From: Candidatus Hydrogenedentales bacterium
GTDB taxonomy: Bacteria; Hydrogenedentota; Hydrogenedentia; Hydrogenedentales; SLHB01
DNA: 64,000 nt
Assembly (NCBI GenBank): GCA_041859475.1
Contig: JBHEKO010000113.1
Coordinates: forward strand, 11,212 to 75,211
Direction of reading: 5' to 3'
In this document: one piece after another, positions 1 through 14,589 of the stretch
Position numbering within the stretch: the stretch's first letter is position 1
How the letters are laid out: each line of letters starts with the position of its first letter
The notes under the pieces: generated by a model
Told to the model about the DNA's origin: nothing
What the model saw: only the letters and a program-made list of their open reading frames with translations
The model's database searches: none
Translations under genes and position numbers: made by a program

Positions 1-327
1 GCCATAGAACCGGACGCGCGCGCGGACGCTGTCCCCGCCGCCCCCCGTCGCCCGGCAATCGATCAAAAACGGACGCGGCACACGCACGTCCCCGTCCAGC
101 GGTTGCTTGAACGCCTCCGCGAATGCCGGGTCCTGCGGCCCGCCCAGGCCATGCCCCAACAACCCCCGCAACACCGCGATGGGCTGTTCCGGCAACTCCG
201 GCGCCCAACGCGCCAACGCCAACGTCAGCCGCGCCCCCACTACAGGTAAATCAACGTCAAACAATGCCGTGCCCCCCGGCGATTCGCTGCGACTGCTAAA
301 TGTAATGCCGATTGATAAACCGGATGT

Positions 328-585
328 GTTTCAATGCCGTGCTACCCGGCGTTCCTTATCCATTTCTTTGTAGCGCCCGGCCTCCGTGCCGGGCGTCTTC
401 ACAACAGCCCCGTGCTACCCGGCGCGGTCCCAACACTAGGGTCTGGTTATGTCTATGCGTTCATTGTGGATGCAGTTTCAATGCCGTGCTACCCGGCGCG
501 GTCCCAACACAGGTCTTCCGGTCCTCAAGCATCTGCTGAAATCAGGCTAGTTTCAATGCCGTGCTACCCGGCGCGGTCCCAACAC
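328..585 (-). CRISPR. CRISPR array 1. It has 2 intact 36-nt repeats (475-510, 550-585) plus leader-distal degenerate or truncated copies (328-351, about 407-436). Spacers at 437-474 (38 nt) and 511-549 (39 nt).
   Basis: The direct repeat is GTTTCAATGCCGTGCTACCCGGCGCGGTCCCAACAC on the plus strand. Its minus-strand reading ends in ATTGAAAC, the canonical 8-nt crRNA 5' handle. It lies next to cas2 and RT-cas1. Repeat degeneracy is at the low-coordinate end, opposite the leader. Confidence 0.85.
373..396. other. Perfect 8-bp GC-rich stem (CGCCCGGC / GCCGGGCG, 374-381 with 388-395) and 6-nt loop, inside the 55-bp insert between two truncated repeats
   Basis: Read directly from the sequence. No U-tract follows on either strand. 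Confidence 0.4.
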
Positions 586-768
586 GACCCCTCTTGGGGG
601 CCCTTGTGGCGTAAGGAGTTAGCAAGTGTAAAACGCTTACGACCGTCAAGAGTTTCATTTACGTCCCTATTTTGCCCTATATCCCTGCGTAAGTCAAGTC
701 CTATCAATGGGTGCTAGCGACCGTTCCGTATTGGAGCGTTTTCGGGCTTTCTGAACGCCTCCGATGCT
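586..768 (-). promoter_or_regulatory. CRISPR leader 1. About 155 bp (587-740) are about 95% identical to 3149-3300.
   Basis: A conserved non-coding block lies immediately on the leader-proximal side of both arrays. It is relatively AT-rich. In the minus-strand sense it contains a conserved TTGACT -35-like hexamer, present in both copies. Confidence 0.55.
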
Positions 769-1053
769 TCATACGATATAGTATCCTCGTGTTGTCTGAA
801 TTAGCGTGTTGCCCTCGGTTTCGCATTGCTCGCGGCAGGTGGCGCATGCCGTGTACAGACGCAGGGAATCCTCGCCCTCTTTCATCTCTGCAGTGACGGC
901 TTCGCGCATCTGTTCCAGCGAGGCCTCGGTCACCCAGCATTCGAACACGCTCTTTTGGACGCGTACGCCGAAGCGCTCCATCACGCGCGCCACGCGCCGC
1001 AGCCGACGGGCGTCACGCACATCGTAACACGCAATCCAGAAGCGTTGCTCCAT
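769..1053 (-). CDS. cas2: CRISPR-associated endoribonuclease Cas2
   Basis: 94 aa. The N-terminus is MEQRFWIACYDVRDARRLRRVARVMERFGVRVQKSVFEC, the typical Cas2 pattern (YDV..R.R.....G.R.Q.SVF.C). It sits 6 nt downstream of cas1. Confidence 0.85.
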   Translation of the reverse strand: MEQRFWIACYDVRDARRLRRVARVMERFGVRVQKSVFECWVTEASLEQMREAVTAEMKEGEDSLRLYTACATCREQCETEGNTLIQTTRGYYIV

Positions 1054-1058
1054 GGGTT

Positions 1059-2980
1059 CTACTTTCGCGCAAAGGGAACGTAGGCGTCAACAGCCCCTTG
1101 GACAAATCGGCGGAAGCGCAAGGTCTGGAGGTCGAGCACGCGCCGCCAGTCCACCTCATGTTCGACGTCGGGATGATGGAGGAGTTCGGCCAGTTTGTCT
1201 TCGAAGGCCTCGATGAAACGGTGGCGTGCCTCGTCCTTCATCAGGCACGGTTGCGGCGTGCCCGGCGCGAGGTAGAAATCGCCCTCTTCAAACGCGCCGC
1301 GGTTGGCGACGTTGAGTACGAGGGCGTCAACCACCAGCGCGCGGAATTCCTCGAGCAGGTCGGAGACCAGGGCTTGGTGGCCGGAACGGGTCTCGTGAAA
1401 GAGCCCCACCGCTGGGTCCAGCCCGCGCGCGAGAACGTACCCGTGGATGTTGTGATAGAGCATGGTGTAGCCGAAACTCAGCAAGCTGTTGATGGGGTCG
1501 AGCGGGGGATGGCGATTGCGGTGGTTGAAGGCGAGTCCGTTCCGGAAGCAGAGGGCGTAGCCTTCGAAGTACGCTGCCGCCGCACTGCCCTCGATGCCGC
1601 GGAGAGTGTCGTCGTCCGAACAATCGTGGACGCGCGCGTGCAGCGCTTCGATGCGTTCAAGGACATCGGCCAACGCGACTTCCGGGTGGTTTCGGTGGTG
1701 GTGTGACAGAAACTGGTGGGAATTGCGCAGTTTGCGTCGACGATGGCCTTGGCGGTACCGAGGCGTTTTTGTTCATCGTCGGCCAGCCGGTACTGTTGCC
1801 GACGCACCATCGGCGCGCCATCGTCGTCCTGTAGCTGATGGAGCAAGCCGTAGTAACTGCCGCGCCCCGAAAATAGATGTATCGGAATGCCCTTGCGCAG
1901 GCAAAACCCCATGACGCCGGACGTGAGGTGCACCCGTCCGAAGGTGAAGATTTGGTCGATGTGGTGCGCGGGCAAATCAATAAGCGTGGTCCCGTCGCGG
2001 CTGACCACGAGTCGGCCCCCGTGACACGCGAGGATGCTGCCCTGTTGCTGGATATAGAGCGTGCGGAGCAAGGTGTAGGGGAGGCCTTGCGAAGGTGGAC
2101 GGTGGGGCGGGGGATGCGGCGGTCTGTAGTCGGCCTCGTAAGGGTGCGGCGCGTCGTAAATCAGTTCCGTGCCGATAAGCGTGGCCCCGAGGAACGGGAA
2201 TCCCGCATCGAAGGTCGAGACTGAGGTCTTGTCCGCCGCCAGACGCAGGCCTAGCGATGCAAGCGCGCGCTCGGCCTCGCCCCGGGCCTTCTGCGCGGTA
2301 GCGTCGTCGACACAGCATACAACGAAATCGTCCGCATACCGCACGAGTTTCCACCCGGCCTCGACCATCGACCGGTCGAACGGGGTCAGATACAGGTTGG
2401 CCAGCAGCGGCGATATCGGAAGGCCCTGGGGCAGCCCTTCGGTCAGCGAGATCAGGCGATCGCGATCGGCCAGCGGGGCGCTCAACCAAAGCCGGATGAG
2501 GTTCAAAACATCACGCGGCGCATGGGCCGCTTCGAGCATGGCGAACAAAGGCGCGTGCTGGACGGTATCGAAAAAACGCTCGACGTCTGCGCGAAGTGCA
2601 TGGGCAAACCCACGGTCGCGGTATGAACAGACCATCGCGAGGGCATCGCGCACGCCGACTCCGGCGCGGTAAGCAAATGAACAGGGATGCAGGAGCGGCG
2701 CGATCAGCGCTTGAAGCAGCATCGTCACCGCCGTCATGGCCACACGGTCGCGGACTGTTGCGATGACCAGCCGACGTTGTCCGCCGCTTTCCTTGGGGAC
2801 GTATACCACGCGATAGGCCTGCGGACGATAGGTGTTGGAAGCGAGGTCGTTGTAGAGCGCGTCAAGATTGGCTGAAAGGTCGCACTCGAACGTCCGCGGG
2901 CTTATACCATCCAACCCCGGCGCTTCGCCCCCTGTCCGCGCATGTTCCCACGCCTCCTCCAAGAGACTTCGGTCGAACAT
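1059..2980 (-). CDS. cas1: Reverse transcriptase-Cas1 fusion (RT-Cas1). It is split over two reading frames by an apparent -1 frameshift at a TTT homopolymer around 1731-1733.
   Basis: The N-terminal about 300 aa carry group-II-intron-like RT motifs (RVVYVPKESGGQRRL, PQGLPISPLLANLYL, VRYADDFVV). Downstream come Cas1 motifs (LYIQQQGSILACHGGRLVV ... AKAIVDA). These continue in the -1 frame as KLRNSHQFL...ADVLERIEALH...LLSFGYTMLYH to the stop at 1059. One extra A (plus-strand T) would restore the frame. Confidence 0.8.
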
Positions 2981-3035
2981 TTGTCCCCGCGCCTCCCCTC
3001 ATCCGTAGAAGAAAAACGCAAACACCTTTTGCCCC

Positions 3036-3147
3036 CAAAACATGGCGTGCTACCCGGCGCGGTCCCAACACGGGTGATGTTGGCGGCATGACCTATGGCC
3101 GCACTATCGAAGTTTCAATGCCGTGCTACCCGGCGCGGTCCCAACAC
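3036..3147 (-). CRISPR. CRISPR array 2. It has one intact repeat (3112-3147), one degenerate leader-distal repeat (3036-3071, 29/36 identity) and a single 40-nt spacer (3072-3111).
   Basis: Same repeat as array 1, same polarity, same degeneracy pattern. It lies immediately upstream (minus-strand sense) of the RT-cas1 start. Confidence 0.8.
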
Positions 3148-3300
3148 TCCCCCTCTTGGGGGTCCTTGCGGCGTAAGGAGTTAGCAAGTGTAAAACGCTT
3201 ACGACCGTCAAGAGTTTCATTTACGTCCCTATTTTGCCCCATATCCCTGCGTAAGTCAAGGCCTATCAAGGGGTGCTAGCGACCGTTCCGTATTGGAGCA
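3148..3300 (-). promoter_or_regulatory. CRISPR leader 2 (paralogous copy of leader 1)
   Basis: 3149-3300 align with 587-740 with about 7 mismatches. It occupies the same position relative to the first repeat. Confidence 0.55.
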
Positions 3301-3474
3301 GATTGACCAATCCCAGGGTTTCAGCGGCGGCGAGAATTGGCCCATCTGAAACCTCTTTTGGTACGTCGCAAGGATGAAGATCAGAACCGCCCCATCTCCG
3401 AACTCGCTAGACTACCTACTTAGGCAAACTTTGGGAATATATGAGGGTAAAAGCCGAAAAGTTGACCCAACCAA

Positions 3475-4392
3475 CTAAAATTCCTCATTGTAACCTAGTT
3501 GCTTCGCTTCTTCTCGAACAGCGTGCATTATGGCGTGGATATCGCGGGAAGTTAGCTCCGCTCTCCACTTGATGTCCTCGCGAATGCTTTCAATACGCGC
3601 TAGGCGCATGCGATTGCCCACGATATGCTCCTCGCGGATAGGGTTACATAACATGGTTTCCTGATAGGGAACGCCGATGAATGCGCAGGCGTCACTCAAA
3701 GTCTTAGCGACATCGGCACACAGGTCCTCGTAGCGTATGCGTAGGACCTGCTCTCGTGACAAGGCGCGAACGTGTTCAAGACTATCCCTATAGTTAGCCC
3801 GCCAAGCGATGGCGCTGAATAGCGGGGTGTGCCCGTGGTAGGACCTTGACGATAGCGCGCACGCTGCGGGATGTCGCACTAAGTGAATAACCTTAAGCGA
3901 CACGCCCCCAAGATTCCTGAGCGCGAAAAGCTGAACAGGCAGTTTTGAGGAATCGACAAGAATGGATGTCTTCAAAATATCGCAGGCAGCGCCAATGAAA
4001 CGGTGATACGTCTCCTGAACGCGAGTAAGATGTGTGGCACATGGGCTAATGAAGGCCCGCGCGATCGATTGGACGCGCACGAACGCATCGGACGACCGAG
4101 GGCGAAACCAAATTCGCTGCGCCAACGTAGGTGGCTGTTGAAGAACTCTGGTATTCCAAGTGTTGTGGGCAAGCGAAAAGTGGGAGCTACAGATGCGGTG
4201 TTCAATTGCGTTGTAAAACGGACACTGACGAATGGGCTCGCCGCAGGAACAATCGAAAGGGCGGCCTTGAGCAAAGCGTGGTGGCCCGACAATCTCTCCC
4301 GTCGTGGCGATTTGCGAGTGATTCGACAACAACCTAGCCAGAAGAGTTGAGCCCGAATAGCTAAATCCTAGAATATAGACTAGTGTTGCCAT
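3475..4392 (-). CDS. Sulfotransferase family protein
   Basis: 305 aa. The N-terminal P-loop-like PAPS-binding motif is ILGFSYSGSTLL (compare PKSGTT of sulfotransferases). Size and architecture fit cytosolic/Stf-type sulfotransferases. Confidence 0.55.
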   Translation of the reverse strand: MATLVYILGFSYSGSTLLARLLSNHSQIATTGEIVGPPRFAQGRPFDCSCGEPIRQCPFYNAIEHRICSSHFSLAHNTWNTRVLQQPPTLAQRIWFRPRSSDAFVRVQSIARAFISPCATHLTRVQETYHRFIGAACDILKTSILVDSSKLPVQLFALRNLGGVSLKVIHLVRHPAACALSSRSYHGHTPLFSAIAWRANYRDSLEHVRALSREQVLRIRYEDLCADVAKTLSDACAFIGVPYQETMLCNPIREEHIVGNRMRLARIESIREDIKWRAELTSRDIHAIMHAVREEAKQLGYNEEF

Positions 4393-4472: not shown

Positions 4473-6734
4473 CTATTTTGCAGGCAACATCGGAGGAAAT
4501 TCCTTTACCTGGATGCGGCTTACGGAAATGCTTTCTCCCTCGGTAAGGTTCTTCGCGCTGATCAAGAGTTCCAATGACTCAATTTGAGCAGAAGAAAAGG
4601 CATCGCGGATGTGCAGCGCTTCCGTGTTGAGTGTGCCGCAAATCAGATCGCCGTCTTGCGATTTTATGAAAATTGATCTTTGAGTTCTCTGAAGAGGAAC
4701 TGTGACTTTGCGTTGCATTACCACATTACCATTTTTACTTATTGAAATATCTGTCATAGTCGCACTATCGATAGAAAACGCATATTCTGCCGACGCACCA
4801 TTCCCACTGGACCTGAGGCGAAGCTCAAGACGCGAATCGTCAGGAAGTGCTAGCAGCCGTTCGGGAGGCAAATCCCACGCAACGTTCGCCTGCTCTACTA
4901 CCTTCGGCGCATTCTTTCCAGATTGTTCCTGAATATCGACTGTTACGCAAAACTGGCTGGGAAGCCTTTTTTTGTATTTTATTGTCGATTCACCCCCTTT
5001 GACGGCGTGGAGCTCCAATGCTTCAGGATGGTACGCAAACGAGTGCTCGCCACTTACTTGTGCCCAATGACTGAAAAGACGGACAGCCCGGTCCGGTTCG
5101 AAAAGGTAATCTCCATCAAGAACAGATCTATCCTGCCACATCTCAGCGTTCGAGAAACATCCCGCTCCCCCATTACCAGCGAATAGGCCTTGTCCAAGCC
5201 CCTGCTGCCTCCATGCCTCGTTACGAAACGATATCGAAGGTCTGTCATCGACGCGAAAGGAGACTGTCCCTGGATGCGCAGTCAACTGCAATCTGTGCCA
5301 TTGTTCGATGTCAATTTCCTCGCTGGACGCGCCCCAAAGCTCGATGGCCTGTCCTGCGCGAACATCGACTATTCGAATGCGAGCCTGCGATGACGTTGGG
5401 GCGGACCTTGTCAAGACAAGAGCGCTGTAGTTCATGTCGTCGGCCACGGCAAATGCTAATCCGATATCCCCTGTGTTGCCGAGGAAACGAACGTCGCTTG
5501 ACAATACACTGTACTCCCCAATAGACCACGGGCATTTGAGAAGCCCCGTCGATTCCGCAGCTCCAAAGTAAAATGAGTTCGCCACGGGAGAATCGTCAAG
5601 CCTGGCGACTCGCCACTTTCCAGAAGCGGCATTCCACTGGCCCGTTTCCCGGTCAAGCAAGTCTCTGTGGTAGAGGAAGCCACTAATTGCTAGATTTCTG
5701 AATATAGGTCGTTTAGTATGAGATGAGACAACTGAAATGGAACCGTGAAGGTATTGACCATCGGATGTGCTCACGACGGAACTACCATCCCAGTAAACGT
5801 CGATATGTTCCCCCATTCTCCGTATTCCCAGACCGTGCCAATCGTCGCTGCCAGTGACTCGAGCCAAGGAGATTTCCTTCAGCAGTTCGGTTTTCCCGTC
5901 TGTCTCTGTTCGTACAAGACGAAGCACATGTGTGCCCTCGTTGCCAGGGTGTACCTCAACACGATGTGCCCCTTTTCCTTTTTGAATATCGAATTCCATT
6001 CCCACGAAGGAGTCCAAGTCCTTTGCTGTACACGGAGGGGCTTTGAAAGCGAGATCGGCGAAAAAACTCTGTCCCTTGTCGTCACACAATGGGTACACAA
6101 AAAGACCATCGTCACGCTTTATCCACCCTTCAGCTTCATCCACCAGAGAAACAGAGAGCAGCGTGGGAGTATAGCCAGGAGGCGAATATTGCGTGTGTGT
6201 CGTAAGAACAGCTTCGTCCAAGGCGGCCAAGTGGCCATCCTCGATTAGGCGCAAAAACTGATGCCCAGGCTCGTACGTATAGGTACCCACTTTGATCCAA
6301 TGCCAAACTCCGGGACTTTCCATAGAACTAATAACGCCATCCGACACAGGGCTTTCGGTCAAGCTCCTGTCGGAACCAGCAGTACTAGTCTGATACCGGA
6401 TTGCCCGTGCGCAAACGCAATGCCATTGCACTCGAACCCATACCGCGTAGGTGGCTCTTTCAGGAATATCAAAGCCAACCTCTATCATACCCCGTGGGGA
6501 TGCAACATCATCCACCCCGCCTTTCCCTGCTGCAGACGTCCGACTTCCCAATACAACGCAACCATCTCCTTGTGCGCCGTCTAAGAGACACACCTTGACA
6601 GGGGAAACGTAATCTTGAAATTTCTCCAATTCGAGAACCATTTGATCGGATGTCTTTATGGCTGCGGAGTTTACTGTGGTAGTCAAGAGTAGAATTGGCC
6701 ATGCGCATAGACGGCCTACAAATGAAAACCTCAT
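4473..6734 (-). CDS. Large secreted protein, function unknown. It shares a jelly-roll/CBM-like module with the product of 21975-23105.
   Basis: 753 aa. N-terminal signal peptide MRFSFVGRLCAWPILLLTTTVNSAA. The WHWIKVGTYTYEPGH and GNGGAGCFSN motifs are paralogous to WHWVKGQTVNLHKG and ANGGGVYFDN in the other protein. Confidence 0.45.
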   Translation of the reverse strand: MRFSFVGRLCAWPILLLTTTVNSAAIKTSDQMVLELEKFQDYVSPVKVCLLDGAQGDGCVVLGSRTSAAGKGGVDDVASPRGMIEVGFDIPERATYAVWVRVQWHCVCARAIRYQTSTAGSDRSLTESPVSDGVISSMESPGVWHWIKVGTYTYEPGHQFLRLIEDGHLAALDEAVLTTHTQYSPPGYTPTLLSVSLVDEAEGWIKRDDGLFVYPLCDDKGQSFFADLAFKAPPCTAKDLDSFVGMEFDIQKGKGAHRVEVHPGNEGTHVLRLVRTETDGKTELLKEISLARVTGSDDWHGLGIRRMGEHIDVYWDGSSVVSTSDGQYLHGSISVVSSHTKRPIFRNLAISGFLYHRDLLDRETGQWNAASGKWRVARLDDSPVANSFYFGAAESTGLLKCPWSIGEYSVLSSDVRFLGNTGDIGLAFAVADDMNYSALVLTRSAPTSSQARIRIVDVRAGQAIELWGASSEEIDIEQWHRLQLTAHPGTVSFRVDDRPSISFRNEAWRQQGLGQGLFAGNGGAGCFSNAEMWQDRSVLDGDYLFEPDRAVRLFSHWAQVSGEHSFAYHPEALELHAVKGGESTIKYKKRLPSQFCVTVDIQEQSGKNAPKVVEQANVAWDLPPERLLALPDDSRLELRLRSSGNGASAEYAFSIDSATMTDISISKNGNVVMQRKVTVPLQRTQRSIFIKSQDGDLICGTLNTEALHIRDAFSSAQIESLELLISAKNLTEGESISVSRIQVKEFPPMLPAK

Positions 6735-8575
6735 TTCGCCGTTGTCTCCAAGATTTTCTCGAGACGCTTAATCATGGATTGTGCCTCACTAACATATGCG
6801 CTCTCCGGAAAGCGTTCCGTAAGTTCTTGCAGTAAATTGCGCGCTGCGGGATACTGTTGCTGGGCCAACCTGTTATTCGCTAGCCAATATAAAGCCCGAG
6901 GAGCCACATCGTCTATTTGGTTCGCAATATCCCGCATGTCCGCTTCCGCCTGCTCGGTATCTCCTAGGGCCGACTCGCAAAGCGCGCAGAGGAATTTAGC
7001 CCTAACTTTGAAAGTCGCGCTCTCACTCTGTCCGGTAAGGAAAGGCTGAAGTGTAACATAGGCTTTTTCGTAGCTCTCGTTCTTGTAGAGAAGAAGCGCC
7101 AACGCGAAACGCCCTTTCTGCGCTTCTGGCGTGTCAGAGTACTCGTCAAGCAGACGCTGATACCGCTCTTCAGCCTTGGTCGGGGTCTGTAAAACAGAAG
7201 CCTCGTACTCTGCAGCCGCCAAAAGCATCCGCGGGCGCGCGAAGGAACTAGGACACATTTCGATAAATTGATCGTAGACTTGGATGGCTTTCTTTGACTC
7301 AGCCTTGCTTTTCAAGGCCATGGCATAAGTCTCCGATAATTCCGCAAAATGCTCCGTGATCGCACTGTCGCTTCTCACCGCACTTTGCGCCAAAAAGTAG
7401 GTAGGGGCTGTCAACGCCAGTGCCAGTTCATCTCGGGCCAAGGTTTCCGCCGGGGGAAGTCCAAGTAACTCCGCTTGCGCATTCGGATTTGTGCCAGCAG
7501 CGCCTAAAATGCGTGCAACTCGCTTTAGAGCGACGTCGGCATACCGGATTTCTCTTGAGGTAGGCATACCCGCCGTTTCTTTGGGGAGAGAGGCTAAGCT
7601 GTTTGCCTGCGTTCCCAAAGCCCTCAACAAATCCAAAGTACGCTCACGCGGCGTTTGAGAGTCGCAAAGAGCAAGTAATCGGACTAAGAAACTAATGGTT
7701 TCGTTGGATGCAGAGAGCGTTTCCAGGGTTATCTTAGAAGAGATGGCATCCAAACTGGGTGCAAGAGCGAAGTAAACCGAAGCGTATGCGTTTGCCCCTT
7801 CTTTTGGGAATGTGTCAGCGGTGGCGCAACCTCGCGCCAGATACTCTCGCATGTCATTTGCTACAACGGCTAGAAGGTCTGGAGAGTCCTTATAGACGTC
7901 TACCATCTCTTTCTCCAGCGAGAAACCGGCGTTAGCGAGAATCCGAAGCGACAGAATGCACACACCGGGAACTCTAAGAAACTCTGGGTAGTCCGCACAC
8001 ATGCTGAGGATATCCAGCGCCGCCGCCTTAGGGTCTCCGTTTGATTCACAGTGCTCGGCTCTCCGAAGAAGGGCCAGACGTCTTGATTTACCTTTTGTCT
8101 GAGACGCGATAATTTCCTCGCAACGGCTGGTAAACGCGGAAGCGTCTTCGCGCGCTAACGCCGTCAGACTTCGATCTAAGGCTGCAAGCGCCGCCTTCGA
8201 GTCGAGAGCCCGGGCCTGCAACATCACGACAAGCCCCGCTGCACGGTTCGGCGATTCCTCTGCATACTTGGTGTAAAGAAGGTCGAAAAGACAAATTCCA
8301 GCATCGTCATTTGCGACAAGAAGCAGCAAGTCCTCAGGACCGGCCTCTTTTTCAAGAACACTGTCATGTTTCCCAGACTCGATGAGACGATCCAGAATGC
8401 GGTCTGGATCGGGCGACTTCGAGAGCGCCGCCCACTCTTCTTTGTTCTTTTCTAACCAAGCAGTACGGCGATCTGTTTCTGATAGCTTCGTCTCGGGCTC
8501 GTTTTCTCTGTTCGAGCACGCTGTGAGGAGCATTAGCAAACAGATCGCATGGCAAAGAAGATTCCTTGTGCTCAT
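6731..8575 (-). CDS. TPR-repeat lipoprotein
   Basis: Lipobox LLTAC follows a hydrophobic N-terminus. There are multiple TPR-like helical repeats (for example YKNESYEKAYVTLQPFL, ALYWLANNRLAQQQYPAARNLLQEL). The start is placed at the MSTRNLL methionine. Confidence 0.5.
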   Translation of the reverse strand: MSTRNLLCHAICLLMLLTACSNRENEPETKLSETDRRTAWLEKNKEEWAALSKSPDPDRILDRLIESGKHDSVLEKEAGPEDLLLLVANDDAGICLFDLLYTKYAEESPNRAAGLVVMLQARALDSKAALAALDRSLTALAREDASAFTSRCEEIIASQTKGKSRRLALLRRAEHCESNGDPKAAALDILSMCADYPEFLRVPGVCILSLRILANAGFSLEKEMVDVYKDSPDLLAVVANDMREYLARGCATADTFPKEGANAYASVYFALAPSLDAISSKITLETLSASNETISFLVRLLALCDSQTPRERTLDLLRALGTQANSLASLPKETAGMPTSREIRYADVALKRVARILGAAGTNPNAQAELLGLPPAETLARDELALALTAPTYFLAQSAVRSDSAITEHFAELSETYAMALKSKAESKKAIQVYDQFIEMCPSSFARPRMLLAAAEYEASVLQTPTKAEERYQRLLDEYSDTPEAQKGRFALALLLYKNESYEKAYVTLQPFLTGQSESATFKVRAKFLCALCESALGDTEQAEADMRDIANQIDDVAPRALYWLANNRLAQQQYPAARNLLQELTERFPESAYVSEAQSMIKRLEKILETTAK

Positions 8576-8597
8576 TTTTCGCTCCGGCGTCAGCAAA

Positions 8598-10004
8598 TTA
8601 GTTGTAGATATCCATGGTCCGGGTATTCGGTGCTTCTACTTTACGGATAAATTTGTTTGCCTCTTCCGTTGTTCTCTGATACACGCCATCAACCGAAATA
8701 TGTGATTGATATGGATCAACTATTCCAGCAAGGGCCAATATATAGTAACCATTAAAACGCTCAAACGCGAATTCCCGACCGATAAGGTCGAATGGCCCCG
8801 CATCGAACAGCTTTGACTGGGATGTGTAAACAAGGTCCCAATTGCCGCAATTTTGCGCGCACAAAGGGGCGAAGTCCTTGCGTTCAATAACATCCTTTCT
8901 GCATGGATATCCGATCGGAGCGTTCTGTAGCGGTGCATCTTTTCGGGTAAGCCATTTAACAAGCCGCCAAGACGCTTTTTCCTTTTCGGGAGTGCTTTTT
9001 CGCACCGCCAAATAGTATGTGGTTTTATTGGCAGCGACATCGCGTCCAGAACAAGGCAGCGGCGCCAAAGCAAAGCGCTTGTCTTGGCGTATCTCCGCCA
9101 GGCGTTTCCTCGTTACAATCTCCATTGCGTATTCCGAGGTGGGTTTGAGGGTTGGCCTTACTCGCGCAGTGCCGTCGCCTACCATGAAAAGAGGGGCAAA
9201 AGACGGTAGTTTAAGAAGCTCAGGCAATTGCTGCAGAGCTTCTCTAACCGCAGAGGAGTTAACGTCAATTCCGTTTTCCGTAAAAAGATTGGCGCCGCGC
9301 TGCGCTAGGAATGTGAGATATAGTTGGCGTATTATCTTGCCGCTTTCCACAATAGCAAGCCCAAATACATCGAGTTGGCCATCGCCGTCGGTATCTTTGG
9401 CCAAACGATTAGAATAGTCTATACACTCCTCCCAGGTCTTGGGAGGCGCACTCAATCCTGCCGCTGCGAACAAATCTGTCCGATAGGCAAGCAAAAGAAG
9501 ACTGTCCGCGACAAAAGGCACACCCCAAGTTTTCCCGCCATACTGGACAGGAGGCAACAAGTTCGGATAAAAGGCATCGAGATGGAAATCGTTGTCTGGC
9601 AGGAATTGGTCCACTGGGACAATCACCTGATTTGCTCCCAAGTGTGCCGCCTCATATCCCGACCAGCTACTCAAGCCGATCACGTTTGCCGCTAGGCCGG
9701 GAGTGTCGATCAGCAACTCTTTGGAGCGACTCGGTTGATTGAAGTTCTTTATCGTAACTCTAATATTTGGGTTCGCTGCCATAAAAGCTTGCACTTCTGA
9801 TGTGAACCACGGCAGCATTTCTTTCGAGGAAAGGGATAGATTGCCGACTTCGAGCTCAATGACCCCAGAGGGGGCCGCAGTGGCGAGAGAAGTGCTTTCC
9901 GTTTGTTGCGTCGGCGCGTCTTGTGCACGAGAAAACGTCGCAAACAGCAGCGAGGCAAGCACCAATCCAGCCCGAAGCATCGTTTCATACACTCTCCGTT
10001 TCAT
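8598..10004 (-). CDS. ABC transporter extracellular solute-binding protein, family 1 (sugar-binding, MalE-like)
   Basis: Signal peptide MKRRVYETMLRAGLVLASLLFATFS. The family-1 SBP core shows in GKTWGVPFVADSLLLLAYRTDLF and PPKTWEECIDYSNRLAKDTDGDGQLDVFGLAI. The start is placed at the internal Met. Confidence 0.6.
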   Translation of the reverse strand: MKRRVYETMLRAGLVLASLLFATFSRAQDAPTQQTESTSLATAAPSGVIELEVGNLSLSSKEMLPWFTSEVQAFMAANPNIRVTIKNFNQPSRSKELLIDTPGLAANVIGLSSWSGYEAAHLGANQVIVPVDQFLPDNDFHLDAFYPNLLPPVQYGGKTWGVPFVADSLLLLAYRTDLFAAAGLSAPPKTWEECIDYSNRLAKDTDGDGQLDVFGLAIVESGKIIRQLYLTFLAQRGANLFTENGIDVNSSAVREALQQLPELLKLPSFAPLFMVGDGTARVRPTLKPTSEYAMEIVTRKRLAEIRQDKRFALAPLPCSGRDVAANKTTYYLAVRKSTPEKEKASWRLVKWLTRKDAPLQNAPIGYPCRKDVIERKDFAPLCAQNCGNWDLVYTSQSKLFDAGPFDLIGREFAFERFNGYYILALAGIVDPYQSHISVDGVYQRTTEEANKFIRKVEAPNTRTMDIYN

Positions 10005-10383: not shown

Positions 10384-11484
10384 ATGGCCCGAAGTTTTGA
10401 ACGTCCCGACGCACCGAAGAGGAGGATAGTGACGCGCCTTTTGTGGGGCCTTGCGTTCGCTGGCTTCGTGGGGCTGCCGCTGTATGCCGCGCTCGACCAG
10501 ATGGTCTACGCGGACGTCTATGGCCCTCCGCGCTGCTCTGCTACCGCGCCGACAACTGTGGGGAGCGCTTTTCAAGAGGTCAATGTAACGGGCCCTTCGT
10601 CCATGTGTGCGGGGGCCAAAAGCCTTTACACGGCAGGCGGTGGCGGCGACATGGACGTCGTCTCTGCGACGGACTGCGCCCCCGCCTGTTCGGGAGCGAC
10701 TCCACACTGCGTTAGAGGCCAATGCAACGACAATACTTCCTATTCGTGGAACGTGACTGGTGGAGGGGCATCGACTCACGAAGTGTCTGGGCTCAATAAC
10801 TATAAGTGTACGGTGAAGGCATCCAGAAACGCCCCTAGCTCTTTTTCCATTTTCGCGTCGAGGAATGAAGTGTCTGCATATGGCGAAGGAGGGACTCACT
10901 CTTCCACACCGTTAAGCGTGTCCGTGACTGGGCCAGCGCTCACACAATATACCGCCGCGTCATGGGCGTATCCCGATTACTCAAACAGAGTGAAGTCTCC
11001 AGCTGGGGCGCTTGCCGATGGAGAGGCCGCGACTTTCGACGTGTTTACCGATGATGCCGATGGCCCGGATGCCTCGGCTGATACTATATGTTGCAAAGGG
11101 ATTGAAATTAATATGGGAGAATTGGACGATATATTCTGTACTATCGGTTTAGATAAAATTGGCGATGAGACAGAGTATAATGCGGTACAAGCCAAGTCAT
11201 GGAATGTTAAGTACGTAGCGGAGATCAATTGGTGCGGGAGGCCGGTGCGAGAAGGGGAAGAGGTTTTTGTGGGTTGCGCTCCCATTGGCACCAATCTGAA
11301 CAAAATGATTTTGATTGCGTCCGCCTCCGCAGCTGTAGTGGCTCATGAGTTTGGCCATACTAAAGCGGGCCTTGAAACATCGGCTGGCGGTGACGTTGAC
11401 GGCCATAATACTAATCCTGAAAATTTCATGTATGCTACAGATCCAGGAGTCTATGTAAACAGCACGCAGTGCGGTAAGTTTTGA
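10384..11484 (+). CDS. Secreted/anchored metzincin-like zinc metalloprotease candidate (cassette A, gene 1)
   Basis: 366 aa. Strong RBS AAGGAGG. N-terminal hydrophobic anchor or signal. The middle is rich in Ser/Thr/Gly. The C-terminal motif is HEFGHTKAGLE followed by an ENFMY Met-turn-like motif. It is paralogous to 14680-15797. Confidence 0.55.
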   Translation: MARSFERPDAPKRRIVTRLLWGLAFAGFVGLPLYAALDQMVYADVYGPPRCSATAPTTVGSAFQEVNVTGPSSMCAGAKSLYTAGGGGDMDVVSATDCAPACSGATPHCVRGQCNDNTSYSWNVTGGGASTHEVSGLNNYKCTVKASRNAPSSFSIFASRNEVSAYGEGGTHSSTPLSVSVTGPALTQYTAASWAYPDYSNRVKSPAGALADGEAATFDVFTDDADGPDASADTICCKGIEINMGELDDIFCTIGLDKIGDETEYNAVQAKSWNVKYVAEINWCGRPVREGEEVFVGCAPIGTNLNKMILIASASAAVVAHEFGHTKAGLETSAGGDVDGHNTNPENFMYATDPGVYVNSTQCGKF

Positions 11485-13521: not shown

Positions 13522-14589
13522 ATGACCAAGAGTATGCCGTTCTTGCGAGCGAGAGTATATACGTGTCTGTGTGTGCTGTTGCTTTCTTCGATAGGCCCCG
13601 TTTTCGCGCAACAGCCGGAGCAGAGCGCTGCCCGCCTGAAGCTGACAGAGCTGACCAAAGTTGTCGAGTTGCGCAGCGGCCTCGATTCCGTGCCTAAAGA
13701 AGTTGTAGCCCTCTACCAAAACACAGGGACCGCTCCGCTCACTGTGTCGGTCAAGAGCGTTTCCTGCGGTTGTACAAAGGCGGTCATCGAGACACCCTTG
13801 CTTGAGCCAGGTCAGGAAGGACGGATCAAGCTTGAGCTTGAGGAGAAGAAGTTCAAGAAAGACGGCACCGTCATGATACAACTCGCAACCAACGACCCAG
13901 AGCAAAAAGAGGCTTATCTCCAACTTGAGGTCAAGTGGATTCCGCCAGTCTCCGTCACCGGTGCCGGCCTGCTGCAATTGGGCCTTGTGCCGACCGGAGA
14001 ACAGCGGAAGGCGGCGGTCGCGCTGGTTCAGAATTTCGGAGACGTTCCCTTAAGTGTTGATATCAAGTCGTTAACGGGAAACTGCCTTGCCGTTGGCGTG
14101 AGCGAGGGAACCAAAGGCTCGCTAAAGACGTTTTCGTGTGAAATCACCTTCGCGGCTGTGAATCCGCCGGGGCCGTTCCGGGAGGAAGCGATTCTACAGA
14201 CGAACTTGACGGAGCCTCGGGATATCGTGGTCCCCGTTTCCGGAATAGTCGTGGGCGATATCGAAGTGGACCCGTGGCAGATCGATTTCGGCAGAGTGCC
14301 GCTCGGAACGACAAGAGACCGCCGTTTGAGATTACTTTCTTCCGCAGAGAAAGAAGCGAGGTTTGTGTCGGCCTACACCAATGTCCCGGCTCTTCGGCTA
14401 TCGTGGGACAAAAACGGAAAACCGACGAGTATTACGGCTACCTTCAGCGCCACCCAGGCGCAAGGGGACATCAAGGGAATGATTCACCTAGTTTCGAGCT
14501 CCGGTCAAGAAACGTATGTGCCCGTGACGGGAACCGTTGTTCCGGCGATTATCGATCTCGCTTCTTCAGGTTCTGCAGCTCCTCGGTAG
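13522..14589 (+). CDS. DUF1573-like secreted protein
   Basis: 355 aa. Signal peptide. The motif LTVSVKSVSCGCTKAV matches the N.G...L......SCxC signature seen in the two other DUF1573-like ORFs here (30885-29815, 50982-49987). Confidence 0.5.
   Translation: MTKSMPFLRARVYTCLCVLLLSSIGPVFAQQPEQSAARLKLTELTKVVELRSGLDSVPKEVVALYQNTGTAPLTVSVKSVSCGCTKAVIETPLLEPGQEGRIKLELEEKKFKKDGTVMIQLATNDPEQKEAYLQLEVKWIPPVSVTGAGLLQLGLVPTGEQRKAAVALVQNFGDVPLSVDIKSLTGNCLAVGVSEGTKGSLKTFSCEITFAAVNPPGPFREEAILQTNLTEPRDIVVPVSGIVVGDIEVDPWQIDFGRVPLGTTRDRRLRLLSSAEKEARFVSAYTNVPALRLSWDKNGKPTSITATFSATQAQGDIKGMIHLVSSSGQETYVPVTGTVVPAIIDLASSGSAAPR

Follow-up and report, generated by a model that had tools for sequence, protein, structure and literature searches.

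In the type III-D CRISPR-Cas system of Vibrio vulnificus YJ016, an RT-Cas1-Cas2 module is located between two arrays, one with 2 and one with 9 spacers, the repeats of which are identical and the leaders near-identical, differing only at distances of over 119 bp from the first repeat; these leaders carry the array promoters, and promoter activity has been measured (Gonzalez-Delgado et al. 2019, PMC6821258). Marinomonas mediterranea MMB-1 encodes a type III-B Cas6-RT-Cas1 protein, and its RT-Cas1/Cas2 integrates spacers at the leader-proximal repeat, on in vitro substrates comprising 20-40 bp of leader (PMC11014452). Type I-F leaders, of about 150 bp, are folded by the integrase and host factors (bioRxiv 10.1101/2023.05.26.542337), and leaders of types I-E and I-F bear sites for IHF and, upstream, motifs bound by Cas1 (PMC5224486; bioRxiv 10.1101/2023.05.26.542337; Santiago-Frangos et al. 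2021 as cited there). In systems of type I-D (PMC6607411) and in those of type I-A in Sulfolobus (PMC9456107), which differ from the present one in subtype and sequence, short conserved leader motifs are reported to control Cas1 binding or acquisition levels.

Here, we describe a pair of CRISPR leaders in a Hydrogenedentota genome. Self-comparison of the window, i.e. the whole stretch of 64,000 nucleotides analysed, identified a direct repeat (549-737 and 3111-3299) of 189 nt with 96% identity. Of these 189 nt, 36 are a CRISPR repeat, 152 lie outside the repeat and one is a matching base of the spacer. When the CRISPR repeat is excluded, 586-737 and 3148-3299 are identical at 145 of 152 positions (95.4%), which bears out the ~95% identity given by an earlier note on this DNA. 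The duplicated block that this note had placed at 587-740 and 3149-3300 is real, but its 740 and 3300 ends are about 3 nt too long, because identity collapses past 737 and 3299. The 64-kb window holds only two copies of the block, where chance would give 0, and the 7 positions at which they differ all lie outside the -35 and -10 boxes and the conserved block 2 described below.

As the note had also stated, each block abuts the intact, high-coordinate repeat of an array: 586-737 touches the repeat at 550-585, and 3148-3299 touches that at 3112-3147. Together with 475-510, these are the perfect copies of a 36-nt repeat that reads GTGTTGGGACCGCGCCGGGTAGCACGGCATTGAAAC on the minus strand and ends, as claimed, in ATTGAAAC. 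Array A (258..585, minus strand) comprises about 5 repeats and 3-4 spacers; its repeats are perfect at 585..550 and 510..475, partial at 436..401 and 363..328, and degenerate at 293..258. Array B (minus strand) comprises its leader-proximal repeat (3112..3147, an exact match to the 36-nt repeat), a single 40-nt spacer (3072..3111) and a terminal repeat (3036..3071), the 3' end of which, in the minus sense, is degenerate and has lost the ATTGAAAC tag. In both arrays, the degenerate or truncated repeats are hence located opposite the block. The two arrays have no spacers in common, and their repeat has no match in viral contigs. The sequence at the repeat 3' end belongs to the 8-nt crRNA tag type of type III systems, being ATTGAAAC here and ATTGAAAC, ATTACGAC, ATTACGAG or ATTGAGAC in relatives. 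The only match in an Rfam search was a weak one to CRISPR-DR29, inside array A at 370-405 (28 bits for a cut-off of 39).

The degenerate distal repeats, the ATTGAAAC end and the presence of RT-cas1, cas2 and a cas6-like gene on the same strand uphold the minus-strand reading with the block as leader. The blocks will therefore be referred to as leader A, upstream of array A (586..737, minus strand; nhmmer match 736..588, E=1e-35), and leader B, upstream of mini-array B (3148..3299, minus strand; nhmmer match 3298..3149, E=8e-36). They join the first intact repeat, face degenerate distal repeats, are common to both arrays and have a G+C content (51-53%) below that of the cas genes (62.5%); high leader identity within the genome and lower leader G+C are also found in six relatives. 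Taken together, these data make us confident that both blocks belong to a type III-associated RT-Cas1 locus as paralogous CRISPR leaders read on the minus strand. Versions of related loci from different samples (L009 versus L026 and L023; L004 versus L005) showed no spacer gain at the leader end, and since the compared array versions carry the same spacers, they give no polarity signal on spacer acquisition.

Read on the minus strand, the locus runs from leader B through the 2-repeat mini-array, a frameshifted RT-cas1, cas2, leader A and the ~5-repeat array to the cas6-like gene. The RT-Cas1 fusion gene (1059..2980, minus strand), which starts 55 nt after mini-array B, encodes Pfam RVT_1 and the N-terminal half of Cas_Cas1, followed by the C-terminal half of Cas_Cas1. 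It is split into two ORFs, 1478-2980 and 1059-1673, by a -1 frameshift that three-frame reading places in an A-run at ~1731-1733. Once repaired, RT-Cas1 shares 52-58% identity with intact homologues, which have 640-663 aa, and the same split ORFs are present in Logan contigs from three runs. The RT domain begins at residue 61, leaving no room for an N-terminal Cas6 domain; whereas Cas6 is part of the fusion in MMB-1, a separate cas6-like gene follows array A here. Next to RT-cas1 lies cas2 (769..1053, minus strand; Pfam CRISPR_Cas2, E=7e-21), the stop codon of which is 32 nt from the start of leader A. An RT fused to Cas1 with an adjacent cas2, as in type III RT-Cas1 adaptation modules, is thus present, with the fusion ORF interrupted. 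Only the N-terminal part of the cas6-like gene (1..246, minus strand) is contained in the window, off which it runs; by tblastn it matches the gene located after the downstream array of the related locus L028 (36% identity over 77 aa, E=4e-6), and it has a match in L008 too. The L028 gene itself has a weak CRISPR_Cas6 Pfam match, and PF27225 AF_1859_N is listed for it in the locus table.

Relatives of this locus are type III loci with Cas10, RAMP, Cmr and Csm genes, Csx19 and Cas6. No effector cas genes (Cas10, RAMP) were found at positions 3300-64000 of the window, and tblastx against the relatives' loci yielded only noise outside 1-3300. The CRISPR locus leaves the window at position 1, and effector genes may lie past that edge. 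With RT-cas1 frameshifted, the arrays tiny (1 and ~3-4 spacers) and several repeats broken, the locus looks decayed in this genome. Because of the frameshift and the lack of effector genes in 3300-64000, its leaders may no longer be functional. The flanking of the adaptation operon by two arrays and the frameshift in RT-cas1 both go beyond the earlier note.

The layout is equivalent to the two-array arrangement of V. vulnificus YJ016, as judged from the published description of the latter. The Vibrio module belongs to another phylum, has two Cas2 genes and is intact and active, whereas RT-cas1 is frameshifted here. Duplicated leaders on two arrays flanking an RT-Cas1 module are already known, and those of the window are ordinary leaders in this respect; what is new is a gapless conserved leader family, a second conserved block and the occurrence of the two-array layout in relatives.

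Members of this family from 7 species give a gap-free alignment of 155 nt, adding an ungapped cross-species conservation to what is described for V. vulnificus YJ016. Fourteen leaders aligned to the leader-repeat junction share CTTGACTTAC at -113..-104 from the first repeat (CTTGAGTTAC in L028), xAxxAT at -89..-84 and block 2 at -64 to -41, of the form TTGAC-11 nt-TTTYACAC. In the window, this alignment places block 2 at 3188..3212 in leader B (CTTGACGGTCGTAAGCGTTTTACAC) and at 626..650 in leader A, both on the minus strand. Block 2 was found too in L031, L033 and L011, and the 39-nt spacing between the two conserved leader blocks is also kept in L031 and L033. Conservation reaches approximately -135, and a heptamer pair lies inside the leader, with its upstream copy at -134 and its second copy at -56; the two copies co-vary only partly, and L031 and L033 break the pattern. 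A leader profile matched twice in each of L004, L006, L008, L009, L027 and L028 and once in each of L031 and L033. All of these sites lie immediately upstream of an array next to RT-cas1-cas2, and the profile does not match the two further arrays of L006. These results define a family of leaders at the RT-Cas1 loci of Hydrogenedentota in which spacing is strictly conserved.

The earlier note had singled out a TTGACT hexamer, conserved in the leader sense, as a promoter candidate. The hexamer is present on the minus strand of both copies (697..692 and 3259..3254) and represents a credible -35 box, as it pairs with CAAAAT after 17 nt and the combination is kept across species. A consensus scan predicts sigma70-type promoters at 669..697 in leader A, with a transcription start near 662, and at 3231..3259 in leader B, at a position kept in relatives (both on the minus strand); these are the only two sigma70-like matches in 1-3600. 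They match 9/12 consensus positions, of a sigma70 consensus that may not be that of Hydrogenedentota. Six other species have the predicted promoter at -112..-84 from the first repeat, with the same spacing and -10 type, L028 carrying TTGAGT; the -35 box of L033 reads TGGACT. The promoter spacer is variable in sequence among species despite its fixed length. The predicted promoter, its TTGACT at -112..-107 separated by 17 nt from CAAAAT at -89..-84, would start the pre-crRNA ~77 nt before the first repeat, and a Cas6-type enzyme would cut the repeats, leaving the ATTGAAAC tag. From leader B to the start codon of RT-cas1, there is no such site other than the predicted leader B promoter, which probably drives RT-cas1-cas2 as well. 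We infer that transcription starts from the leaders and that RT-cas1 and cas2 are co-transcribed. For the window, our results settle the strand and polarity of both arrays and provide likely promoters for arrays that bracket an apparently decayed RT-Cas1 adaptation operon.

How did one genome come to carry two such leaders? The earlier note proposed that duplication of a leader with a seed repeat had generated the second array. A recent event of this kind, having created array B (or A) de novo and with the 95% identity reflecting its age, would agree with a duplicated unit of exactly one leader and one repeat, with spacers that are not shared and with the single spacer of array B. In addition, L029, L030, L031 and L033 are devoid of an upstream array beside RT-cas1, so that the clade has seen gains or losses of arrays. 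However, in five other species (L006, L008, L009, L027 and L028) arrays with family leaders lie directly on both sides of RT-cas1-cas2, while in L004 the second array is farther away, past the effector genes. Moreover, leaders are 80-97% identical within a genome and 39-75% between genomes, paralogues being each other's closest relatives, which would call for a separate recent duplication in each lineage or else for an older pair that was homogenized. In L027, near-perfect identity extends from the -35 box to the repeat and breaks upstream of the -35 box, which looks like a conversion tract and argues against a recent duplication. Taken together, the layout of these five species and the likeness of leaders within genomes point to an old, widespread two-array arrangement, the leaders of which are kept alike by recombination or repeatedly re-duplicated. 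We therefore consider the proposal poorly supported: a recent duplication in this genome is possible but rather unlikely, and array B is probably not the product of a one-off birth, although duplication of a leader and seed repeat is possible as the original event. Under the old two-array arrangement, the copies would be held ~95% alike by recombination or gene conversion between them, or by re-duplication. Self-comparisons of RT-Cas1 loci from other phyla (L016-L020), inspected for duplicated leaders, gave a signal cluttered by arrays.

Another explanation is that the leader's conserved portion works not as a site on the DNA but as an RNA with structure, be it a small RNA encoded by the leader or an element bound by the RT. 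Block 2 is indeed downstream of the predicted transcription start, and an inverted copy of the block-2 heptamer occurs 8-20 nt downstream in 4/9 species, each of which has its own sequence (CGTAAG/CTTACG, TTACCG/CGcGTAA, GGTTAG/CTAACC and GGTTAG/CTAACT). The inverted copy is missing in the 5 other species, though, RNAalifold called no consensus pairs on the ungapped leader alignment, the window leader RNA folds no better than shuffled sequences (z = -0.11) and no Rfam family matches the leader, making an RNA role very unlikely.

The 189-bp direct repeats are 2562 bp apart and bracket the adaptation operon, which recombination between them would loop out, and short-read contigs (Logan, 1.2-2.6 kb) end exactly at these repeats, as if they were the ends of a mobile or excisable RT-cas1-cas2 cassette, LTR-like or flanked by a target duplication, instead of functional leaders. 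Against this, each copy lies at a constant distance from the first CRISPR repeat and has a predicted promoter conserved in many species, no transposase or integrase except Cas1 is encoded between the copies, and the strict two-motif leader pattern has no match in viral contigs. We consider a cassette highly improbable. Finally, the notion of a generic dispersed repeat (REP or MITE-like), with the block standing by chance beside arrays, finds support only in its occurring twice and has a negligible likelihood, given the mere two copies in 64 kb, profile matches in 30 other loci that are all array-adjacent, the same lack of viral matches, and the recovery from JGI metagenomes, with the strict two-motif pattern, of only two contigs (L004 and L009), both RT-Cas1 loci with two copies each.

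We return to the two blocks as paralogous CRISPR leaders. To our knowledge, little is known about the leader requirements of RT-Cas1 integrases. The leader segment assayed for MMB-1 was 20-40 bp, while conservation extends much further here. Across species, block 2 and the upstream heptamer sit at a fixed distance, free of indels, from the leader-repeat junction, which is what one would expect of an integration site set by a protein or by a DNA-bending ruler. Block 2 is thus probably a docking site for the integration machinery, and the leader a likely landing platform for the Cas1-Cas2 integrase, as judged from conservation. Like type I-E and I-F leaders, this leader is ~150 bp long and has conserved motifs at fixed distances from the junction, the spacing of which may position the integrase. 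Unlike them, it shows no IHF consensus, carries other motifs (TTGAC, 11 nt, TTTYACAC) and belongs to an RT-Cas1 locus of a type III system. The IHF consensus WATCAANNNNTTR is absent from both leaders; in the window it occurs only at 14061 and 62641. We tentatively propose, as a hypothesis that we hold to be less probable than its negation, that the leader, with its 155 bp, serves RT-Cas1-Cas2 in Hydrogenedentota type III systems as a clade-specific, ruler-like platform, bound by the integrase or a co-evolving host factor, with gene-converted copies of which the upstream one doubles as the RT-cas1-cas2 promoter. If so, adaptation genes and crRNAs would be co-expressed from one element. Intact relatives, among them L004, L006 and L027, are ready substrates for studying which leader elements direct the integration of RNA-derived spacers.

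Two further readings of the leader were discarded. Block 2 does not qualify as a second promoter, as TTGACG and TACACT are only 13 nt apart and no -10 box is kept at 16-18 nt. An internal direct spacing of 78 nt raised the idea that the leader consists of two fossil repeat-spacer units; by eye, the site-1 region resembles the 3' half of the repeat in the window and not in the other species.

The window contains a 189-nt direct repeat of 96% identity (549-737 and 3111-3299), each copy of which comprises a matching spacer base, one 36-nt CRISPR repeat and a unique stretch of 152 nt. These stretches, leader A (586-737, minus strand, fronting array A at 258-585) and leader B (3148-3299, minus strand, fronting array B at 3036-3147), are identical at 145 of 152 bases (95.4%); their likeness ends sharply past 737 and 3299, and the 64-kb window holds only these two copies. 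The repeat, which reads GTGTTGGGACCGCGCCGGGTAGCACGGCATTGAAAC on the minus strand, is perfect at 475-510, 550-585 and 3112-3147, and partial or degenerate at 401-436, 328-363, 258-293 and 3036-3071. Each block thus adjoins the intact, high-coordinate repeat of its array, with the broken repeats at the opposite end. At 328-363 and 401-436, the partial copies look like a single repeat interrupted by a 58-nt insert (352-409), with a 15-bp duplication (repeat positions 10-24) at its borders, the sum of 15 and 58 being 73, the usual repeat-plus-spacer period. The insert, which holds a perfect 8-bp-stem hairpin (CGCCCGGC-CTCCGT-GCCGGGCG) and a sub-threshold match to Rfam CRISPR-DR29 (370-405), has no further copies in the window or in viral contigs, and may represent a foreign repeat or the product of aberrant integration.

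Between the two blocks lie the minus-strand genes for an RT-Cas1 fusion (2980..1059) and Cas2 (1053..769). Along transcription, the order is leader B, a mini-array of two repeats and one spacer, RT-cas1, cas2, leader A, an array of about five partly broken repeats, and a minus-strand cas6-like ORF (246..1), which runs off the window and resembles the gene following the downstream array in relatives. This arrangement matches the type III-D locus of V. vulnificus YJ016, in which the RT-Cas1/Cas2 module sits between CRISPR01, with 2 spacers, and CRISPR02, with 9; the two arrays there have identical repeats and leaders that diverge only at distances above 119 bp from the first repeat, and promoter activity has been measured (PMC6821258). 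Types I-A, I-D, I-E and I-F are already known to have conserved leader motifs that play a part in integration. Given this shared layout and these known motifs, we conclude that the duplicated leader blocks are an ordinary feature, correctly read in the earlier note, whose description of blocks and repeats proved right to within about 3 nt.

The RT-Cas1 gene (1059-2980) is split by a -1 frameshift, at an A-run near 1731-1733, into two overlapping minus-strand ORFs, one (1478-2980) carrying RVT_1 and Cas1 profile positions 1-122, and the other (1059-1673) the remainder of that profile. The site shows a 1-nt deletion, GCAAAC where homologues have GCx AAA CTG. Identical split ORFs were found in Logan assemblies from three sequencing runs, indicating that the frameshift is not one assembly's error, and RT-cas1 here is probably a recent pseudogene. 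No effector genes were found within 3300-64000, a region that opens with a sulfotransferase followed by unrelated genes. Given a frameshifted RT-cas1 and arrays that are both damaged and tiny, the CRISPR system looks inactive or decaying.

Across leaders, the promoter hexamers and their 17-nt spacing do not change, whereas the sequence between the hexamers is variable, a pattern expected of a real sigma70-type promoter, and within window positions 1-3600 the leaders carry the only such match. From this predicted promoter, transcription of a minus-strand pre-crRNA would begin in each leader some 77 nt ahead of the first repeat, and Cas6 would process the transcript into ATTGAAAC-tagged crRNAs. 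The RT-cas1 start codon lies 55 nt past the mini-array, after a ribosome-binding-like stretch (GAGGGGAGG); since the leader B promoter is the sole candidate upstream, it probably drives the adaptation operon too. The leader promoter is likewise the sole candidate before RT-cas1 in the related loci L008, L009 and L027, and L006 has an additional one. A terminator-like minus-strand hairpin (308-323, CCGGTTTATCAATCGG then CATTACATTT), a weak match within the degenerate distal portion of array A, might stop the array A transcript ahead of the cas6-like gene.

Even the closest intact homologues of the repaired RT-Cas1 share just 52-58% identity with it; several come from Candidatus Hydrogenedentota MAGs. 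The relatives' loci are type III, with Cas10, RAMP, Cmr or Csm genes, Csx19 and Cas6. The comparison took in 7-9 species. Five of the relatives (L006, L008, L009, L027, L028) have arrays that directly flank RT-cas1-cas2 on both sides. In L004 the second array lies farther away, past effector genes, and L029, L030, L031 and L033 have no array upstream beside RT-cas1; the layout with two arrays is widespread across the clade, though not universal. The leader profile matched solely sites immediately upstream of arrays at these loci, twice each in L004, L006, L008, L009, L027 and L028, and a single time in L031 and in L033, both on contigs that stop at that point; the other two arrays of L006 were not matched. 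In L006 (GCA_016182605.1 JACPGE010000045.1), three consecutive arrays lie upstream of RT-cas1 (5686-9827), one with a variant repeat (GAACTGCCCCAATGATTGGGGATTGAAAC) and two with leaders unrelated to the family, the family leader being restricted to the arrays directly flanking RT-cas1-cas2. The L008 upstream mini-array (7606-7710) has a diverged repeat, GTCGGCCGACCCAGCCCTCGAACGGGGGATTACGAC versus CTTGATCGACCCCGCCCTCGCTCGGGGGATTACGAC downstream (10414-11317), and a leader only 80% identical to its partner, which suggests that in several species the upstream mini-arrays are drifting or decaying. Just upstream of RT-cas1 in L032 (4880-5000) lie two repeat-like pieces (..GAGGGGATTGAGAC and ..GAGGGGATTGCTAG) with no family leader ahead of them, perhaps the leaderless remains of an upstream array. 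In L004 (6321-8960) and L005, the RT-Cas1 module sits beside an 879-aa RAMP-domain protein, a 300-aa RAMP, a CARF-type Cas_APE2256 protein and Cas6, with no separate Cas10 visible within the 22 kb examined; the L004 locus may be a fused-RAMP type III variant. Comparison of the L026 and L009 downstream arrays showed, in one strain, a tandem spacer duplicate a single base apart (TACTGGTAAGATCCTGGCCTGCGAGG.. beside ..CTGAGAGG..), which is an internal repeat-spacer duplication, not a leader-end gain. Between sampled versions of an array (L009 against L026 and L023, L004 against L005), no spacer gain at the leader end was seen.

Leader pairs are mutual closest relatives in every genome (94, 97, 94, 80, 90, 82 and 85% identity), the highest identity between genomes being 75%. 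Between the -35 box and the repeat, the L027 pair is near-perfectly identical; upstream of that box the identity breaks off, much like a conversion tract. The simplest reading of these sequences is an old two-array arrangement whose leaders were homogenized by recombination, repeated re-duplication of the leaders being the alternative. Duplication of a leader with a seed repeat, which the earlier note proposed as the origin of the second array, is plausible as the original event, but a one-off recent birth here is not favoured by the evidence.

Aligned to the leader-repeat junction, 14 leaders from 7 species show zero gaps over 155 nt, at only 39-75% identity between genomes and with CRISPR repeats that differ as well. 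Conserved columns, counted from the junction, are CTTGACTTAC at -113..-104 (CTTGAGTTAC in L028), an xAxxAT hexamer at -89..-84 (CAAAAT, TAAGAT, TACGAT, TAGAAT, TAAAAT or TATTGT), block 2 at -64..-41 (TTGAC, 11 nt, TTTYACAC) and a weaker element at about -135. This gapless, clade-wide leader family and its block 2, which has no assigned role, are modestly new. L011 has block 2 at nearly the same junction distance and lacks the promoter boxes; L028 shows the reverse, with the promoter present and block 2 absent. The tie of block 2's position to the integration site, together with the indel-free leader, suggests a DNA-level spacing function for the integrase or an architectural protein, which would be analogous to the motif phasing and roughly 150-bp leader folding of types I-E and I-F. 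No IHF consensus was found in the leaders. As a standard promoter, block 2 is ruled out by a gap of only 13 nt between TTGACG and TACACT, and an RNA role for the leader is unsupported, with zero consensus pairs and zero excess folding energy.

The leaders also carry two heptamers 78 nt apart, at -134 and -56, alike within each genome and unlike between genomes: CGCTAGC and CGTAAGC in the window, CATTACC and GATTACC in L006, GGTTAGA at both sites in L008 and L009, and GGTTACC and GATTACC in L028. Since L031 and L033 fit less well, this genome-specific pair is only suggestive. In 4 of 9 species, an inverted copy of the -56 heptamer lies 8-20 nt downstream of it, different in sequence in each and not conserved in the other 5; in the window, CGTAAG at 640..635 faces CTTACG at 614..609, and such copies could either form a hairpin particular to each species or make up a palindromic site for a protein.
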